Below, in pieces: positions 8,566-18,457 of a stretch of 64,000 nucleotides of DNA (its first letter is position 1; each line of letters opens with the position of its first letter). The DNA lies in contig JABVCE010000007.1 of the NCBI GenBank assembly GCA_014905635.1, positions 620,001 to 684,000 on the forward strand. The letters are read 5' to 3'. The notes below the pieces were generated by a model, which searched no databases, had not been told where the DNA came from, and saw nothing but the letters and a program-made list of their open reading frames with translations. The DNA comes from Scenedesmus sp. PABB004. Taxonomy: Eukaryota. The position numbers and the translations under genes were made by a program.

Positions 8566-9122
8566 TGCACAGCGGCGTGCGGGCTGCTGAGCGAGAGCGG
8601 GGGCGCCGCGCCGCGGAGCTGCAGCGCTGCCGCCGGTGCCGCTGCGAGCGGCCTGTGTTCGGTGGCGCTCGTCGCCGTGCTTCTCGCCTGAGCAGCTCGC
8701 GGCGGACAGGGTGGGCCAGGCGGCTGTTCAGCTGAGCAGGCGGGGCTGCTCGGCGGTTCAGGGCGGCACGCCGCGACCGTCTGCACAATCCGGTGCGCGG
8801 CGCTTGGGCACCAGATCGTGCACGGTCGGAGGCACGCAGCGGTCACCCGCGCCCGGCGAGAGCCGCCCGCGATGCAGCGCTCGTCGATCGCGCGCCAGTA
8901 CGCGCGCTGCGGGCAGCCCAAGCCGGCGCGCGCCGCGATGGATGGCAGCCTGTGAGGCGGGTGTTGTGTGGTGCGTGCGTCGCGGCCGGTCGGATCGCGC
9001 ACTCCGCCGCCGGGCGCGTTCCGGAAGATTCATGCCGCCGCCCCGCCCCGCCCCGCCCCGCGCCGCGCCGCGCCGCCCCTCCGTCAGGCTCCACGGCCTC
9101 GGTTGAGGGCGCGCTGGGCGCC

Positions 9123-9389
9123 ATGGAGCCGGAGCCGCCGCCGCCGCCGCCGCCGATCGGCGGCGGGCAGCAGGAGGCGCAGCAGCGCGCCGGCGCGCCG
9201 GCTCAGGCCGATCCCGCGCACCCCGTGGCGCCCGCCGGCCTTTTCGCGCTGCCGGTGCTGAACTGGGGCGCGCCGCAGCCCGCGCCGCAGCCGGCGGCGC
9301 CAGCGCAGCCGCGCCCGCCGCCGGCTGGCGCCGGCTGGCGCCGCGCGTATCGCGGGCCGGCAGAGGACGACTGGCTGCAGCCGCCGGAG

Positions 9390-9439
<50 letters not shown>

Positions 9440-12400
9440 GCAGCGCGCGGGCGCGGCGCCGCGGCACCCGCCCGCCGGCGGCGGCTTCGCGTACCAGGAG
9501 GTGGTGCGCGGGCAGGCGCGCCAGGACCTGCCGGGGCACGACTGTGCCCAGTGCCGTGACTTCTACGACGCCCTCTCCACCTGGGGCGCGCCGGCGCCGG
9601 GCACCACGATGCTGCTCCCGTGCGCCCACGCGCTGGCCCCGGCCGCGCTGCAGGCCGCGTCGCGGCACCGCGCCAAGCACGCGCCTCCCGAGACCCCGCC
9701 GGGGTTTTGGGACATCGGGTTCGCGCTCGGCGGTGGCGGCAGGGGCAGCCCCGGGCCCAGCAGCAGCAGCAGCGGCAGCGGGAGCGTCAGCGGGAGCGGC
9801 CGGCGCGGCGGCAGCCCGGCGCCGCGGCCGGACGACGCGCCGGTGCCGGCGCCGGCGCCGCCGCCGCCCGTGGCGCCGCAGCAGCGGCAGCCGCAGCCGG
9901 CCGCGCCGCGCGGCGCGCCGGCGCCGGCGCCGCCGCCGCCGCCGCCGCCGCCGGAGGAGCTCATGGCGCCCGCTGGCACGTGCAGCGGCGCCCAGCTCCG
10001 CGCGCTGCAGTATGAGCTGTGGCGCTGCGGGTTAGAGCTCGTGCACGGCCGCGCCGACGGCCTGTGCGCCTACTACCTCATCGCGGCGGCCATGCTGGGG
10101 CTGCTGCACACGGCGCTCCCGCGGCAGCCGCACGAGGACGTGCGCACCTTTGACGCAGCCACGATGCCCGTGCTGGAGGAGCAGGCGCTCCAGCTGCGGG
10201 CGCTGACGGCGCGGCGCGTGCTGGAGCTGGGGCTGAACGACGCGATGCACGACAGCGGCGTGCCGTGGCGCGAGGTGTTTGTCGACGCGGGTGGCGAGGC
10301 CGCCGTGCGTGCGCTCGCGCAGAGGGTGGCCGGGGGGGGGGGGGGGGGGCTACCCCGGCGAGGCGGAGCTGCGGGCCCTGTGCATGCTCCCCCGCCTGGG
10401 GGTCTCCCTGGGCCCGACGTTCAGCCCCGACACGCTGCTCATCGCCCTCCGGACGCTGGGCGACACGCTGCAGGCGAGCGAGGGCAACCTGCTCGTGCTG
10501 TTTGCGCTGCCGGCCGCCGCGGCGCCGGCGTTTGCGCCCCTGTTCGGGGCGCAAAACCCGCTGCCGCTCAACCACTGGGCGGCGGTGGTGCGGGCGCGCA
10601 GGCCGCCGCCGCGCAGCCCGCCGGCGCTGCTGGGGCAGCCGCGCGAGCCGCCGCGCGGCGCGCCGGCGGTGCTGCAGCAGGCGCGCGAGCCGCCGCGCGG
10701 CGCGCCTGCGCAGCAGCGGCTGCAGGAGGCGGCGCCGCGCGCCGCGGAGCTCGCCGCGGACAGCAGCGACGAGGAGGGCGGCCCGGCGGCGGGCCAGCCG
10801 CTGCAGCCGCTGCAGCCGCTGCAGCCGCAGCAGCTCGGGCGCAAGGAGCGCCGCGGCAAGGGCAACGGCGCCGCGGCGCCGCTGGGCACCAGCAACAGCG
10901 ACAGCAGCAGCAGCAGCCGCCGCCGCCGCCGCGCCGCGACCGCCGCCGCCATTGACGCGGCGTGGGAGAAGCCGGTGGAGCGCGGCGCGGAGCTCGACGC
11001 GTCCAAGGCGCGCGCCGAGGCGGCCGGGCCGTCCGACGAGGACGTGCGGCGCTCCAAGCAGCGCGCGAGCTACGACGCCAAGCACGCGCGCCGCGGCGGC
11101 GGCGGCACGAGCCGCGCGCGCAGCGACAGCGCCGGCGGCAGCGCCGGCAGCAGCACCGGCGGCGGCACGAGCGGCGCGCGCAGCGGCGGGGGCACCCCGG
11201 GCCCCCGCCCGCGCGCGCATCGACCCCGCCGAGTGCGCGGCGCAGCCCGTGGAAGGCGCCGGCTGGGAGGCGCTGCGCCGCCACGCGCAGGCCCGCGGCG
11301 AGGCCGCCCGCGCGGCGGCGATGGCGGCGGTGCTCTCGGCGCCCGCCGCCAGCGTCGGCTCGTCCGCCGGCAGCGCCGCGGCCAGCAGCGACGAGGAGGA
11401 GGGCGGCCCGGCGGCGAAGCGCGCGCGCGGCGCCGACGCGGCGCAGCGCCGCAGCCGCAGCCGCGGCCGCGGCCGCGGCCGCGGCCGCGGCCGTGCGCGC
11501 TCGCGCGGCAGCGCCAAGGCCGCGACGCGCGGCGGCCGCACGCCCTCGCGCGGCGGCGGCGCGCGCGCTCGCGCGGCGGCGCGGCGGCGGCGCCGCGCGG
11601 CCGCCGCAAGCGCTCGCGCGGCGCCGACGAGGCGTCGGGGCGTGCCTCGCCCGCGCGCGGTGCAGCGGCGGCCGAGGCGGGCGACAAGGCAGGGCGGCAG
11701 CAGCAGCAGGCGCTGCCGCGGCACTTCGCCAAGCGCAGGAAACAACAGACCGAGCAGGCCAAAAAGGCAGCGGCTGGCTCTGGCATGCGTGAGTGTGCCC
11801 GCCGCGCGGCGCGCCGCCGGGGCGCCGGGCCGCTGTCTCGGCACCCTGCGCCGCCGCCGCCCCGCGCCCTGCCCGCGCCCCCCTCACCTGCCCTCGCCCG
11901 CCCGCCCGCCCGCCCGCCTCAGGCGTGCGCGTCTGCGCGCTGCGCGGCGCCGTGCGCAAGCCAGAGGTGGTGCCTTTCCTTGAGGCGCTCGTGCGCGCCT
12001 ACAGCCTGGTGGGCATCCTGGGCCGCGACGCGCACCACGTGGCGCTCGTGTATGGGGCCAGGTGCGCGCGCGCGCGGGTGGGCGTGCCCGCGCGCTGCGC
12101 GCGGCGCTTTGCGCCCCCCTCCTCCTCGGCGCCGCCCGCCGAGTCGCGCCGCCCGTCCGCCCGCCCGCCCGCCCGCTGCGCAGCCGGCTGTACGGGCTCG
12201 ACACGCGTCAGCCGCCGCCGCAGCCGGCGGCGCAGGAGCAGGAGCAGGGCCAGCAGCAGCCGCAGCAGGCCCAGCAGCCGGCGCCGCCGCCGCCCGCGTG
12301 CGCCTGCTACCTGCAGGCCGCGTGCGGCGGCGCGCACCTCGTGTACGACCTGATCGACTTTTTCAGCCAGGGCAACTGGCGGCGCGTCGGCGGCGGCCTG

Positions 12401-14220
12401 TCCAGCGACCTGCGCCATGCCCTGGAGCAGGCCTGCGGCGCCAACGAGCTGCAGCGCGTGCCCCTGCCGGCCTGGGTGACGGGCAACCTTCACCACTGCC
12501 TGCTCGCCCCGCTCGCGGAGCTGTACAACACCAACATGCAGCTCCACCTCGCTGACGGCCAGCGCCTGGAGAAGGCGCTCGACGCCGCCGCCCTGCAGGC
12601 GTGGTTTGCCGCGGGCTGCACCGGCACGCCCAGCCGCGCCACGCGCGACTGCCTCATCGCCGGCGGCGCGGCGCTGCTGTACAGCGCGTCGCCGCTGCTC
12701 TGGGAGCGCCAGGGCGTGCTGCAGCCGGGCGAGGGCGTGGTGCCCGCGGCGGCGGGCGACGGCCAGGACGCCGGCCGGCTGCGGCTGGCCATGGCGATGA
12801 TGCGCGACATGCTCGCGCAGATGCGCCTGCACCTGGAGCAGCCCTACCCGGCGGCGGCGGACGGCCAGGCGCGCGCGCCCGCGGCCGGCGCGGCGCGCAC
12901 GCGCCAGGCGACAGGGGCGCAGGCGACGCCCAGCCTGCAACGCTGGGAGTCGGACGAGGCGGCCGGCAAGCACGGCCGCGTGCTCGACTGGGCGCGGAGC
13001 GGCATGCCGCGCGCGCCGGACGCGGGCGCGCAGGCAGGGGGCGCGCCGCTCGTGCCGCAGCCGCCGGAGCCGCTGGCGCACGGCGCGGGCGCGGCGGCGC
13101 GGCAGCAGCACGACGCGGCCTACGACGCCTGGCGCGCGGCGCTGGCCCAGCAGCTCGAGGGCCTGGCGTACCGGGAGGGCGACGCCGACGCCATGGCGCG
13201 CCGCGTCGCGCGCGACTTTGTCGTCATGCGCGGCCAGCAGCACATGTTTGCTGCCTGCGCGCCGCGGCTGGCGGACTCGCTGGCAGCCCAGCAGGGCGCA
13301 GCGGCGCGGCCGGCGCTGGAGGCGATGCTGCGCCGCGCCGCGTCGCTCGGGGCGGCCCCGGAGCAGCCGTCGGCCGGCGCGCTCGCGGCGGCCGTCGCGT
13401 TGCTGGCAGAGGCGCTGGACGGCAGCAGCGGGGGCAGCGGCAGCGGCAGCAGCCGCAGCAGCCGCAGCAGCCGCGGCCAGCGTCCGCCGGCGCCCCGCAA
13501 GCTGCTGGACGCCAGCGCCCAGGAGCCGCGCCTGCGCGAGCTGCAGCGGGCGCGCGAGCTGGGCAAGCTCGAGGCGGCGGTGCAGCGCCTGCGCGCCGCC
13601 GTGGATGCCAGCGAGGCGGCCGTGCGTCTGCGCAAGGACCCCCTCAAGGCCCTGCAGCTGGAGGTCGCCGGCGCTGCGGTCCCTGATCGCCACGCCCGCA
13701 ACCGGCTGCGCCGCCTGCAGCGCAAGGACGCGCACGCGGCGGCGCTCCGGCGCCGGCTGGCCGCCGCGGAGGCGCGGCTGCTCCGCGCCCGGGGGCAAGG
13801 CGCCGCGCCGGGCGCGGCGCCGGGCCAGGGGCCGGGCGCGGCGCTGCCGGCCGCGGCCGCGGAGCGGCTGCGGCTGGCGCTGGCCGCGCTGACCGCCGCC
13901 GGCGACGCGACGGTGGGGGCCGACCTCGCAGCCGTGGAGGCGGAGTGGCAGGCTGCCATGGCGCAGCACCACGAGCGCGACGCCGCGCTTGTGCACCACC
14001 AGCGGCGCCTCGCGCGGCCGCACGGCGCGGCGGCGGCGCCCGACGCGGACGCGGCCCGCCGCGCGGTGGACGCCGCCGGCGCCGCGCGTGACCAGGGCAC
14101 GCGGCTGCTGGGCGACTGCGGCGCCCGACTGGCGGCCGCGCGCGGCCTCCTGGCGGCCGCGCGCGGCCACCTGGCCGCCGCAGCGGCCGCGCAGGGTCGC
14201 GCTGCGCCGGCGCCGCCGGC

Positions 14221-14271
<51 letters not shown>

Positions 14272-16090
14272 GCCCGCGCCGCGCACGCCCGAGGTGGCGG
14301 CGGCGGCTGTCGCGGCGCTGCGTCGCGAGGTCTCGACCGGCTTGCGCCGTGCGGTGTGCGCGACGCTCGAGGCGGTGCTGGCTGCGGCGACCGCCGCCGG
14401 CGCGGCGCCGCCGGCGGCGGCGCCGGCGCCGCCCGGCGACCGCAGCGGCGGCGCGCAGCCGCCGCAGCGCGCCGGCGGCGCGGGGCAGCACCCCGACGCG
14501 CTCGTCGCGGTCGCGGGCGCGTGCAAGGTGATGCGCGCCCTGCGCTCGCGGCACGCCGCGCGCGTGGCGCTGCCCAAGCGGCGCGCCTTCACGCTGGCGC
14601 CGGTGCCCAAGTACGGCACCCAGCACCTGCACCTGTCCACCTCGGGCATGCAGGCGCTGGACGCAGCGCTGCGCGCGCGCCAGGCCAAGGCGCCCGCTGC
14701 GGGCCAGCCGGCAGGCCAGCCGCCGCCGCCACCGCCGACCCAGGAGGGCGGGGGCTACGATCCCGTTTGGGATGCATATTTTCATTTTGGCCGGCGCCCC
14801 GGGCGTGCGCGCGGCGTGCTGCACGCCAACACGCGCTTTGCGGGCTCGGTGACGTTTGATCTGGCGGCGCTGCACGTGCGCGTGCGCGTTGAGGGCGCCG
14901 CCGACCCCGCCCCGCGCCGCGGCCAGCAGTCGCGCGCCGCCAAGGCGGCGCAGCGCGCGGCAGAGCACCGCGCGGGCGTGGAGGCAGCGCAGCGGCTGCT
15001 CTGCGACGCGCTGGCGCCGCATGGCGTGGCCGACGAGGCGGCGCTCGTCGCGCTGCCGCTCGACCCGTGCGAGCTGCGCGGCGTGGAGGGCCTGCCGCCG
15101 GGGCACGCGCTGCGCGGCGCGGCCGCGGCCGTGCACGCGGGCGTGCGCATCGTTGGAATCGACCCGGGCCGGGCGCGCATGATATGCGCCGCGACTTGGC
15201 GGCAGGGCCCGGGCTGCATGCGCGTCGCGCACCGCCGCATCGCGCAGCGGCGCTGCCCCAACGCGCCGCGCAGCCGCGACGACCCCGGCCGCCGCTACGA
15301 GGCGGAGAGCATCATCCGAATAAAGACCGCCGCGCACCGCGACTCGCGCGGGATCGAGCGGCACCGCCTATGGCAGCAGGGGCGGCCGGGGCGGCCGGGG
15401 CGGTACGACCGCCGCCCGCCCGCCGGCGGCGACTGCGTGCATGCCTGCCTGAACCGCGTGCCTGCCTACTCGGGCACGAGCGTCGCCGCCGCCGGGGCGT
15501 GGCGCAACGGCCGGGTGCATCATGTGTTGGACAATGCATTCGCATATAGCTTGCTTGCGTGCCGTGCAGAGTGTGCGTGGCGGCTGCGGAAGCACGGGCT
15601 GAAGCAGCGCGCGCTGCATGCGGCCATTCAGTTGACCGCGTACGGCCGGGTCTTTGTGCGCGGGCGCGTCCGGCCGCACGCGCGCCTGCCCGCCGACCTG
15701 CCCGCGGTGGTGCTGGGCATCGGGGACGCCAGCCTGGGCATGGGGGGCTGCATCTCGGGGCCGGGGCCGCCGCGGCAGGCGCTGCTGGCGCTGCTGCGCA
15801 CTTATTATGCGCGCCGGCGCGTCGCCGCGGTGCTCATGGACGAGCACCGCACGAGCGTCACCTGCTCGGTGTGCGCGTCGCGCATGGAGAAGCTGCGGGG
15901 CATTTACGGTCTGATGCAGTGCCCCGGGTGCACGGTCGTCGCGCCGCGCGACGACAACGCGGCGCGCAACATCTGCGCGCTGACGCTGCACGAGTTGCTG
16001 CCCGGCGGCCGAGGCACGGCCGGCGGCGCGCGCCTCGCCGGCGCGTTCCGGCAGGCGGCCGCTGCCGCCGCGGTGGGACCCCCGGCGTGA
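9123..16090 (+). CDS. Giant Fanzor1 (TnpB-family RuvC RNA-guided endonuclease) with N-terminal CtIP/Sae2-like and OTU-like domains. Model: 9123-11788, 11923-12061, 12184-16090, with a frameshift at the G18 run 10332-10349
   Basis: RuvC-I VGIDPG (Asp codon 15161), VLGIGD, RuvC-II MDEHRTS (Glu 15842), CSVC...CPGC zinc finger, RuvC-III RDDNAARNI (Asp 15950). Fanzor1-like upstream motifs FTLAP, VWDAYFHF, FAGSVTFD. Two phase-compatible GT-AG introns at 11789-11922 and 12062-12183. The Fanzor call is strong; fusion to the 5' domains is less certain. Confidence 0.85.
9486..9722 (+). other. CtIP/Ctp1/Sae2/COM1 C-terminal domain within the Fanzor locus
   Basis: FAYQEVVRGQARQDLPGHDCAQCRDFY...SRHRAKHAPPETPPGFWDIGF carries the EVVR, CxxC, RHR and TPxxFW motifs of the CtIP C-terminus. 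Confidence 0.88.
10020..10590 (+). other. OTU-like cysteine protease domain, split by the G18 frameshift
   Basis: LELVHGRADGLCAYYLIA (DGxC, Cys codon 10065), LQLRAL, then after the G-run YPGEAELRAL and LNHWAAVV (His codon 10573). Motif order matches OTU-family proteases. Confidence 0.6.
14222..14269 (+). repeat. (CAG)16 poly-Gln tract in the Fanzor insertion region
   Basis: Perfect CAG run. A second, imperfect poly-Q tract lies at ~9396-9443. Confidence 0.95.
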
Positions 16091-16690
16091 GCGGCGTGTG
16101 CGGTGCGCTGCGCTCTCCGTCCTGGGCAGGACGTTTAAAGGCCTCTTGCTGTTGTGTGTTGCCAGGTTAGGTCAGGCGTGTGCGCGTGTGTTTCTCGCAT
16201 GGCCACCCGTTCCGGGTGGGGGGCACCCCCTCTCGCGGGGGCACCGACCGACGGGCCGGTCCCAAACCGTCATGCCTCACGCCGCTGTGGCCTGTTTCAG
16301 GCGGCCGGCGTTGATAGGCTGCCCATGGTCGGTGTTGGCGGCGGCGGCGCGCGCGCGCGGCGGTGGCAGCGCCGCGCACGCGCGCCGCGCGCCCGCGGCG
16401 CCGGGACGCCCCCCGGGGCGCCCCGGCAGCCCCCATCCCCCAGCCGCCGGTGTTGAGACCACCGGCCGGCGCTCCCACGGCGGTTGCGAGCCGGCGGGGA
16501 GCACGCCCACTGGGCGGGTTGAAGCCGCTGCACCCCGAGTGCCACCGCCCGCCCCTGGCCGCCCACGCACCACCCAGCGCCGATCAGGAGCACCCACTAG
16601 GCGGGCAGGCGTGGCGGGCCGCGGGTGAAACCGCTGGCAGCAGCACAGGCCTCGCGCTCGCGGACCAGGCCTCACACTCCCGCTTTAATT
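16091..16690 (+). ncRNA. Candidate Fanzor omegaRNA / structured right-end region (boundaries unknown)
   Basis: Directly 3' of the Fanzor stop, where Fanzor/TnpB guide scaffolds are encoded. Many stems, e.g. CCACCCG/CGGGTGG 16203-16219, CACCGACC 16242-16249 with GGTCGGTG 16327-16334, and GCCGGTG/CACCGGC 16446-16466. Confidence 0.55.
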
Positions 16691-16874
16691 GCCCTCGACG
16701 AACCACCGGCCCCCGACACGCTCCTGCGCCGCGGCACCGCATCCGGGAGCGCTGCAGCCGCCGGCGGGCGCGCGGCGGTTGTGCTCGCAGCAGCAGCGGC
16801 GGCGCCGCTCTCGCCTCTCCGGCAAGGCGCAGGTGCCAGCCAGCGCGCGGCGCGGCGGCGGCACGGTCGCCGCG

Positions 16875-18457
16875 ATGCAGGCCTCCAAGCGCAAGGCCGC
16901 GTCGGCGCGGCGCAAGGAGCGCAAGGAGGCGGAGGAGCTGAAGCAGCTGCTGCTGCTCGTGGGCGACTTCCTCGTCACCGGCATCTGGGTGCTGATCTCC
17001 TCGGGCTTCTCCGAGGCGCGGCGCCGCCGCCGCCGCGCGGCCCGCGAGGCCCGCGCGCCGCCGGCGCCGGCGCCGGGGCCGCGGCCGCACGCGGCGGCCG
17101 CCGAGCGCCGCGCCGCGCCGCGCCGCGCCGCGCCGCGCAGGCCGCCGCGATGCTCGCCGGCATCAGCGGGCTCGGCGAGTTTGCGCTCGCAGTCGCGATG
17201 ACCTGCGCCGCGCTGCTGATGATGGGACCGATGTGCGACATGTTTGGCGGTGCGCCGCGGCCCTGGGCGGCGGCGACGCGGCCGGCGGCGTGGCCGGGGG
17301 GCCGCAGCGGCGCGGCGGCGCGCGGGTTGAACATGCGCCGGCGCGGCGCGCAGGCGCGATGTTCAACCCGATCCACAACGCCGCGTTTGTGTGCGCCGGC
17401 AAGGGCACCGTGCGCATGAACGCGGTGCGCATGGCGGCCCAGATCGGCGGCGCGCTCGCGGGGAGCTACACCGCGGTCGCCATCACGCCCGACTGGATGA
17501 AGCAGTGAGGCGGCGGCGGCGGCGGCGCGCACACAGCGCGCTGGCGCCCGCCCGCGGCGGCGCCCGCCGACGGCCGCGCCGCGCGCGCCCGCCGCAGGCA
17601 CTTTCCCAAGCTGCCGGGTGGGCTGAAGGAGGGCGTGGCGCTGCAGGCCGGCGTCGCGGTGGAGATGGTCTGCGGCCTCGTCATCAACCTGGTCGTGCTG
17701 CACGCCATGGGTGAGAGGAGCGGCGGCGGCGGCCGCGCGGCGCGTGTAGCACGCTGGAGCCTGGCCGGCCCGCGGCAGCGGCCTGCGGTCGAGCGCGCCG
17801 CCGCGCCGCAGACACCAAGAACCGCATCGTCGCCTACTGGGCGCCGATCGTGGCGACCGTCGCGCTGGTGCGGCGCCGCGCCGCGGCGGGGCGCCCGCGC
17901 CCGCGCCCGCGCCCTGCGCCCGGCGCCCTCGCGCCGACCCGCGCCCGGCGCCGGCCCCGCGGCGCGCAGATCGTGGGCGGGTCGTACTACACCGGCCCCT
18001 CCATGAACCCGGCCATCGTGAGCCCAGCCAGCCGCGCCGCCAGCGCCGCGGCGCCGGCCCCGGCGGCGCCGTGCGCTGCGCGCCGCCGCCGCCCCGGGCC
18101 TCCTCTGCCCAGCGCCGTGCGCCGCGCGCGCCGCCGCGGCGCACACGCGCAGGCCTTTGGCTGGTACCATCACTACGGCGGCCACCCCTGGGTGGAGCAG
18201 ATCGCCGTCTACTGGGCGGCGCCCTTTGCCGGAGTGCGCGCCGCGGGCGCGGCCGGCGCCGCGCGCCGGCGCGGGCGCGCCGCGCCGCGGCCACGCCGAC
18301 GCCCGCGCCGCCCGCCGACGGCCACGGCGCCGCGCCTGCGCAGGCGATGCTGGGAGGGCTGCTGTACCGCGCGGTCGCGGGCCGCGCCGAGCCGCCCCGC
18401 GCGCCGCGCAGCCTGCCGGCGGGGCTGAAGGCCGCCGCGGGCGCCAAGGAGGAGTGA
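16875..18457 (+). CDS. Aquaporin/MIP-family channel, SIP-like, multi-exon
   Basis: LVGDFLVTGIWV, variant first loop FNPIHN, MAAQIGGALAG, VEMVCGLV, second loop GPSMNPAI, VYWAAPFAG, and a basic C-terminus ending AKEE*. Confidence 0.85.

Follow-up and report, generated by a model that had tools for sequence, protein, structure and literature searches.

A Fanzor1 transposon family in Scenedesmus sp. PABB004 with a structured right end that probably encodes its guide RNA

Described relatives and the Fanzor1 gene of the window

The closest described systems are CRe-1, CRe-2 and CRe-3 of the green alga Chlamydomonas reinhardtii, non-autonomous Helitron2 elements which, according to excerpts of the reports, carry an intron-bearing Fanzor1 of the green-algal type without a transposase (PMC3627910; PMC10530073; 10.1101/2023.06.13.544871). 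Helitron2 elements of the CRe-1 type have an asymmetric inverted repeat of 8-15 bp, whose 3' copy lies 20-30 bp from the end, and a 5' hairpin. The small RNA of CRe-1 starts ~100 nt past the last exon and crosses the element end, and a conserved upstream region is absent from the RNA trace (10.1101/2023.06.13.544871). For SpuFz1, GtFz1 and PpFz1, the scaffold lies between gene and right end, with a flank-derived guide and a stem-loop adjoining it (PMC10432273; PMC11423790). Solved Fanzor1 omegaRNAs measure 75, 90 and 150 nt, and omegaRNA length differs widely between species (excerpt of PMC11423790); known guides have a length of 14-20 nt (excerpts of PMC10432273 and 10.1101/2023.08.09.552727).

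Here, we analyzed a stretch of 64,000 nt from Scenedesmus sp. PABB004 (the window), in which a young, multi-copy Fanzor1 element has its right end at 16091-16506, followed by host flank at 16507-16690 (Table 1). The family is a non-autonomous Fanzor1 DNA transposon, and no transposase was recognised within 8741..16506. It resembles CRe-1, -2 and -3 in its 3'-anchored, 5'-truncated copies with internal deletions and duplications of variable length (PMC3627910), in the extra DNA captured at some left ends and in its many gene-less copies, and it shares a structured 3' UTR at the right end with the CRe elements and CrFNuc fRNA. The distance from stop to element end is 416 nt, compared with roughly 250 nt in the CRe elements (counted by eye in supplementary file 13 of PMC3627910). 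Unlike these, the family described here has no TTTT target and no clear Helitron2 inverted repeat or partner, and it carries an N-terminal CtIP/Sae2 domain, whereas the PGFW motif has 0 occurrences in the protein file of PMC3627910.

The original prediction had placed a Fanzor ORF directly upstream of 16091, and we identified it as a Fanzor1 with an intact D-E-D triad (D218, E445 and D481, encoded at 15161, 15842 and 15950, respectively). The Fanzor1 motif D-X(125,275)-[TS][TS]-XX-C4 zinc finger-X(5,50)-RD (PMC3627910) was matched by protein P0001 at D218, T448-S449, C452/455/471/474 and R480-D481. Two further Fanzor1 traits, DPG in RuvC-I and a glutamate six residues before the zinc finger (excerpt of 10.1101/2023.08.09.552727), were found as GIDPG and as E445 to C452. 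The Fanzor protein showed a Pfam TNB match (E 6.6e-9), and the top three hits of a fold search were Fanzor1 chains (best PpFz1 and SpuFz1), followed by a Fanzor2 in fourth place, all at E 1.5e-4 to 5.3e-4 and all obtained with a low-confidence model (pLDDT 56.7). Distant relatives were missed by a word-based protein search and recovered by a profile-free scan (23 proteins, best E 5.8e-19); metagenomes contributed 46 distant loci, and no Fanzor relatives were found in viral contigs. Taking out both predicted introns leaves the frame open to the Fanzor stop, splicing being predicted from the sequence. The GT-AG introns, together with the relatives of the host SAE2, suggest a green alga.

Table 1. 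Coordinates of the element, its parts and its flank in the window
Feature	Position	Strand	Basis or remark
Fanzor1-bearing transposable element, 7,766 bp (7.8 kb)	8741..16506	+	Both boundaries common to paralogs
CtIP/Sae2 C-terminal domain (CxxC, RHR, TP-GFW motifs)	9486..9722	+	Pfam SAE2 E 1e-12, above cut-off
OTU-like segment (DGLC ... NHW)	10056..10581	+	Atlas lead 0.88 to cluster with 34% OTU
Predicted GT-AG intron 1	11789..11922	+	
Predicted GT-AG intron 2	12062..12183	+	
Last exon: Fanzor1 REC/WED/RuvC/zinc finger	12184..16090	+	Stop 16088-16090
G/T-rich unstructured part of the element 3' region	16091..16194	+	Folding z +0.6; also in paralogs
Two small hairpins and multibranch domain	16203..16334	+	Folding z, variants among copies
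Most structured part: GC hairpin 16342-16396, hairpins 16397-16430, 16446-16466 and 16471-16502, then ACGC	16340..16506	+	
Predicted guide of the window copy (flank)	16507..16526	+	First 9 nt common to flank of copy L023
Single-copy host intergenic DNA containing the two final stems of the original list plus the AT patch	16527..16874	.	No paralog match; z ~0

Right end, fold and extent of the candidate scaffold

Searching the own genome, we obtained 52 matches and retrieved 30 loci; the family comprises ~30 copies. The alignments stop near 16506-16528, with no paralog match past ~16528, and the terminal motif closing at 16506 is present in 29/30 fetched loci (L019 stops at 16425). For the boundary consensus, 28 independent copies were used, L028 being dropped as a duplicate of L027. 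The commonest base reaches 96-100% over 16495-16506, a value that is partly built in because nine of the positions ending at 16506 are the alignment anchor itself, and then 89, 71, 61 and 46% at 16507-16510. The alignment of paralogous loci, which had been proposed as a check for a conserved 3' boundary, thus gave sequence that is shared up to 16506 and variable past it, and the transposon right end expected in 16091..16690 was confirmed. Since the element ends at 16506, the last 184 of these 600 nt are locus-specific flank and 416 nt belong to the element.

Among the copies, two loci (L061 and L062, G000:C67:893836 and 943321) share the same rearranged left part with different right flanks, and the 3' region of L062 contains an insertion of 42 nt. 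Older gene-less copies are represented by L153:4248-4461 (72%) and L154:3858-4150 (83%). In L154, a different sequence forms a hairpin at the position of the GC hairpin, and L153 shows a decayed duplication at its ends.

The 600 nt following the stop had been described as dense, nested hairpins. All nine stems listed at that time and the AT patch are present at their positions in the sequence, but only the stems inside 16195-16506 beat chance as a set. The proposed comparison of folding energy with dinucleotide shuffles gave a marginal excess for the whole 600 nt (z -1.91; 3/100 shuffles as good), a clear one for 16195-16506 (z -3.5, the best among long segments) and none for 16091-16194 or for the flank 16507-16690 (z -0.04). 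The chief source of the excess is the 167-nt segment 16340-16506 (z -3.2 and -3.8 in two runs) with its terminal part 16440-16506 (z -3.8 and -3.1 in two runs); these target segments were chosen post hoc, after looking, and their z was reached by 0/70 (167 nt) and 2/140 (67 nt) background tiles from the rest of the window, in which GC is ~79%. For comparison, intron 2 of the same element showed a z of -2.8. The minus strand folds equally well in 16311-16470, and the diverged copies L153 and L029 gave z -0.4 and -0.8.

In the ensemble of the 600 nt, pair probabilities of at least 0.88 were obtained for 16226-41, 16242-334, the GCCTG arm, 16400-27, 16446-66 and 16471-502, and 0.38 for the stem 16203-19. 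The stem 16118-33 is context-dependent, with a probability of 0.82 in the 600-nt fold and 0.01 in the fold of 16091-16526, and the GACGG/CCGTC stem of the original list has a probability of 0.0, its first two bases being altered in 13/20 other copies. Hairpin 16471-16502 (0.99-1.0) ends 4 nt before the element end, as a stem-loop adjoining the guide. A long-range helix 16336-16435 is predicted in the old copies L153 and L154, and has a probability of at most 0.03 in the window copy.

These data refute the claim of an unusually long omegaRNA of ~600 nt: the paralog boundary at 16506 leaves room for at most 416 nt of scaffold between the stop and the element end, and structure is missing from the first 104 nt. 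A single structured RNA of ~600 nt with its end at the AT patch (16690), for which the existing arms and the overall z of -1.9 could be quoted, is hardly credible, as 184 nt of it lie outside the element, are single-copy with a z of 0 and contain two stems with pair probabilities of 0.32 and 0.12.

The further part of the claim, a scaffold with a flank-derived guide in this region, fits the sequence, and the right end probably encodes the guide RNA of the Fanzor nuclease. By analogy with the characterised systems, we consider it quite probable that the omegaRNA scaffold ends at 16506, continues into a flank guide and has its 5' end at ~16280-16400. The resulting estimate of ~110-230 nt compares with 75-150 nt for the scaffolds of SpuFz1, GtFz1 and PpFz1 in the excerpts cited above, and the scaffold is likely to be at most moderately longer than the known Fanzor1 range; a moderately long scaffold of 200-270 nt is possible. 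In the predicted fold, 16340..16506 is the best candidate for both the core of the omegaRNA scaffold and the end signal of the transposon, 16203..16334 may or may not be part of the mature RNA, and 16091..16194 is probably not scaffold. Gene-less copies begin at 16164, 16166, ~16180, 16244, 16276-85, 16279, 16280 and ~16364. Three short copies with different flanks start at 16276-16285, a post hoc cluster (within ~5-10 nt, p 0.04-0.14) which we regard as a hint only.

We also considered a mature omegaRNA that contains the multibranch domain as well, with its start near 16242, near 16200 or at the stop (265-416 nt), which would far exceed the known Fanzor1 RNAs. The z of 16195-16506 points in this direction, as do the closing stem and the 16280-16310 arm of the domain, which are nearly invariant even in the older copy L154, and the wide variation of omegaRNA length between species (excerpt of PMC11423790). 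However, 16195-16340 alone has a z of -1.5, the inner stems are remodelled between haplotypes in 13-15/20 copies without compensation, and in CRe-1 the conserved upstream region is missing from the RNA trace (10.1101/2023.06.13.544871), so that we judge such a long scaffold quite unlikely.

Conservation cannot show selection in this young family, since the introns of the 6 full copies are as conserved as the 3' region (pairwise difference 1.2-1.6% and 0.3-5.1%, respectively). Across 25 distinct rows (28 sequences), pairing in the four named helices amounts to 98.3%, compared with 33-53% when slid. RNAalifold on 16 copies gave no covariation support (term +2.84), and the proposed covariation check remained marginal: both-sided change does occur, but in 1/37 pairs and in one copy (L029), a count that 71/500 shuffles equal, the covariation score being reached by 14/500, and template-switch repair of near-palindromes could also produce this double change. 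Variable positions make up 25/84 of the unpaired and 38/228 of the paired positions (p 0.016), the structure being predicted from the same sequence. Over the last 110 nt, recurrent variants lie mostly in loops or keep the pairing.

No Rfam match was obtained up to an E of 5. With a covariance model, 58 sources (window, 46 metagenome loci, 11 own-genome loci) yielded own-genome copies only, and in 80 of the 121 viral pattern loci no hit was under E 0.4. ARAGORN returned 0 genes, so that the frequent terminal CCA does not mark a recognisable tRNA. A scan for bacterial promoters and terminators, which is not apt for a eukaryote, gave 0 hits.

Guide, flanking bases and mobility

The guide of the window copy is predicted to start at 16507 and, judging from known Fanzors, to be roughly 15-20 nt long. 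It had been suggested to search with the next ~20 nt as the guide, and no exact target was found elsewhere in the assembly: a 14-nt guide matches only itself exactly, and one-mismatch sites number 4 vs 12 for the reversed control. With 28 natural guides, a base-precise end, nested natural 5' truncations and an intact-looking algal Fanzor1, the family offers a testable system.

The shared flank prefixes are up to 14 nt long and nest within each other as in a tree. In 9/28 copies, the longest shared prefix measures 9-14 nt, compared with at most 6 at +60 nt. In the four copies with duplications, the left duplicate does not match the first 2-6 bases of the flank, which lie outside the duplication. 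Since flank bases appear to be inherited from the parent, the first guide bases would often be inherited as well and not copied from the target. Guide-directed targeting as the cause of the shared prefixes is not favoured, because, in these four copies, part of the initial flank bases is missing from the left duplicate; own-guide matches in the flanks follow the swapped-guide null, duplications excepted. An imperfect repeat of end-plus-guide was observed at 16593-16636, 87-106 nt downstream; its part at 16593-16605 has 3 mismatches in 14, a level reached by 82/756 null pairs, and was rejected.

All 28 copies keep the right end and 21/28 are shorter than 3.5 kb, i.e. they are 3'-anchored and 5'-truncated. 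Full copies keep the predicted introns, and retrotransposition was rejected for this reason. Duplications of 18-21 nt were detected in 4/28 copies, the null maximum being 16 in 112 swaps, and no shared TAM precedes these four duplications. A TTTT insertion target was found at 0/9 left ends and 0/4 duplications. With this family, a second alga shows the odd insertion signature of inherited flank bases and 18-21-bp duplications, which has tentatively been ascribed to Fanzor (excerpt of PMC10288648).

In this respect, the family resembles Replitron-1 and Replitron-N1 of C. reinhardtii, which have fuzzy right ends from the parent flank, variable duplications and a right-end hairpin, with the terminal motif of Replitron-1 directly repeated near the left end (excerpt of PMC10288648), as may be the case here in some copies. 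In contrast to Replitron-1, which carries no Fanzor, 5' truncation is the rule in this family, a Rep gene was neither present in the element nor found in the genome (searched without a positive control), and RG precedes the left end in only 1/9 left ends. The Spu-1 loci offer a further comparison, as their gene-less ghosts also keep the end (excerpt of PMC10432273); Spu-1, however, has terminal inverted repeats and its ghosts keep both ends, whereas the short copies described here are one-ended truncations.

Of the 9 left ends, 3 (all of one lineage) show the 8-nt end motif again, placed 4 nt ahead of the common left boundary, and 3 more have shorter forms; it is absent in the window copy. This motif could represent a direct terminal repeat or else a target/TAM motif. 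An ACGC-like TAM is weakly predicted by the left junctions. Complete or in part, the right-end motif stands 4 nt before the common left boundary in L044, L050, L051, L060 and L158; in four of these copies it is embedded in an extension of ~50-70 nt which they share and which includes a small hairpin. In L047, L048, L053 and L059, the usual left end is present over the first 60-70 bases in an inverted, diverged form; L059, an old copy, contains a palindrome of the same motif, which suggests a left-end fold-back. One 8-bp inverted-repeat candidate was found (8742-8749 with 16426-16433), at a distance of 73 nt from the end; at 80% GC, it may be a chance match.

A RepHel partner (PF14214) gave no match in the genome, in a search whose control gave no signal either. 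For the Replitron Rep (HUH), none was seen in the element and PF21859 had no match in the genome (search without a positive control). Searches for families sharing only the ends, also without a positive control, found only this Fanzor1 family. Because it behaves like CRe-1 and neither RepHel nor Rep was found, we describe the family as a Fanzor1 element working like CRe-1 and assign it to neither Helitron2 nor Replitron.

With covariation marginal (one pair) and the omegaRNA predicted from the sequence, the hairpins could also be single-stranded DNA transposition signals. In the strict form of this explanation, they are the recognition structure of an HUH transposase of the Helitron2 or Replitron type acting in trans, and a functional omegaRNA is no longer made. 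It would agree with the terminal hairpins 16440-16506 forming under DNA parameters as well (-25.7 kcal/mol), with the folding of both strands, with the right-end anchoring of all copies and their retained introns, and with a CRe-1 RNP that formed and showed no cutting in a TAM screen (excerpt of PMC10530073). We nevertheless regard it as unlikely, since ~310 nt are structured here as opposed to the ~50-bp ends common to CRe or Replitron families and their partners (PMC3627910; excerpt of PMC10288648), the nuclease triad is kept while third codon positions of the nuclease are more changed (8.5% vs 3.6-4.8% segregating), and neither an ends-only family nor a Rep was found, the family searches having no positive control.

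Under the favoured reading of a right end that encodes a guide RNA, transcription would, as in characterised Fanzors, run through the gene and past the element end, and the transcript would be trimmed to the omegaRNA. The terminal hairpin cluster would then serve as scaffold, the 3' 15-20 nt from 16507 as guide, and 16091-16194 as 3' UTR that is trimmed away. The terminal hairpins probably double as a single-stranded DNA signal starting a one-ended copy-and-paste transposition, as suggested by the 3'-anchored, 5'-truncated and intron-retaining copies. A new copy would often drag along 2-14 nt of parent flank and take its remaining guide bases from the new site. Empty sites that match would be cut by the Fanzor RNP, which would favour homology-based restoration or insertion.

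CtIP/Sae2 domain, OTU-like segment and host neighbourhood

The CtIP-bearing element is more unusual than the omegaRNA locus, which is an expected part of a Fanzor element. In CtIP/Sae2 proteins, the C-terminal module stimulates MRN. SAE2 is found in 7 element copies and in 1 host gene (G000:C9:331645-331956; ~70% DNA identity). Its motifs are intact in 6/7 element copies, with a nonsynonymous difference of ~0.30 (~30%) from the host gene. The first ATG candidate for the SAE2-bearing exon lies at 9123. After SAE2, a Pro/Gly-rich linker (window 9722-9980; L044, L048, L049) varies from 258 to 1,591 bp through tandem repeats.

The second additional part shows a motif set which we take to be an OTU-protease pattern. 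This segment had a weak Atlas lead and no Pfam hit, folds poorly without an alignment (pLDDT 40.9) and visibly differs between the window copy and L049. In the window copy, it is split by a frame change at an 18-G run (10332-10349), which may be real or an assembly error. This run is the only net break; from the middle of the segment onward, covering its second half, the spliced model stays open as far as the stop. SAE2 is in frame with the OTU-like part in 3/7 copies, the others being shifted by private indels. In L049, SAE2 and TNB share one open frame of 2,749 residues with a compensated shift in the middle. No copy is clean from end to end for a SAE2-OTU-Fanzor frame, and open frames are cheap at 80% GC.

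A SAE2-Fanzor fusion was not seen among database proteins, where four long relatives have SAE2 alone, at the C-terminus. The combination of CtIP/Sae2 and Fanzor was not found in the literature searched, with most subscription journals and Repbase lying outside its scope, and CtIP or Sae2 has 0 occurrences in an excerpt of a 2026 review (PMC13565253). CtIP acts in resection, and engineered Cas9-CtIP fusions, which likewise couple an RNA-guided nuclease to a resection factor, raised homology-directed repair (excerpt of PMC11531618). In contrast to these, the combination found here is natural and transposon-borne and comprises the C-terminal Sae2 module, whereas one engineered version uses an N-terminal fragment (excerpt of PMC11531618).

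The captured CtIP domain may push Fanzor breaks toward resection. In a joint reading of all parts, a spliced CtIP/Sae2-OTU-like-Fanzor1 polyprotein of ~2,300 residues or more, with a scaffold of ~230 nt (the longest for Fanzor1), would be a natural fusion of nuclease and resection factor. It would cut, activate host MRN resection and copy itself into breaks from the right end without a transposase, and the first guide bases would be handed down from parent to daughter. Built from sequence features, this reading is doubtful, and we give it a small but real chance. A CtIP module that proves functional would be nature's equivalent of the engineered nuclease-CtIP fusions, and would provide direct evidence for a role of eukaryotic Fanzors in steering the repair of breaks toward homing.

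In the surroundings of the element, TGTAA, the polyadenylation signal of Chlamydomonas, occurs once per strand in the 64 kb, and a signal of the Chlamydomonas type therefore seems unused here. Downstream, a multi-exon host gene (window 16875-18457, ATG 16875) showed NPA-like motifs, from which we presume it to be an aquaporin; its fragments had no Pfam hit. The element sits between this gene and a divergent HAD-hydrolase gene.
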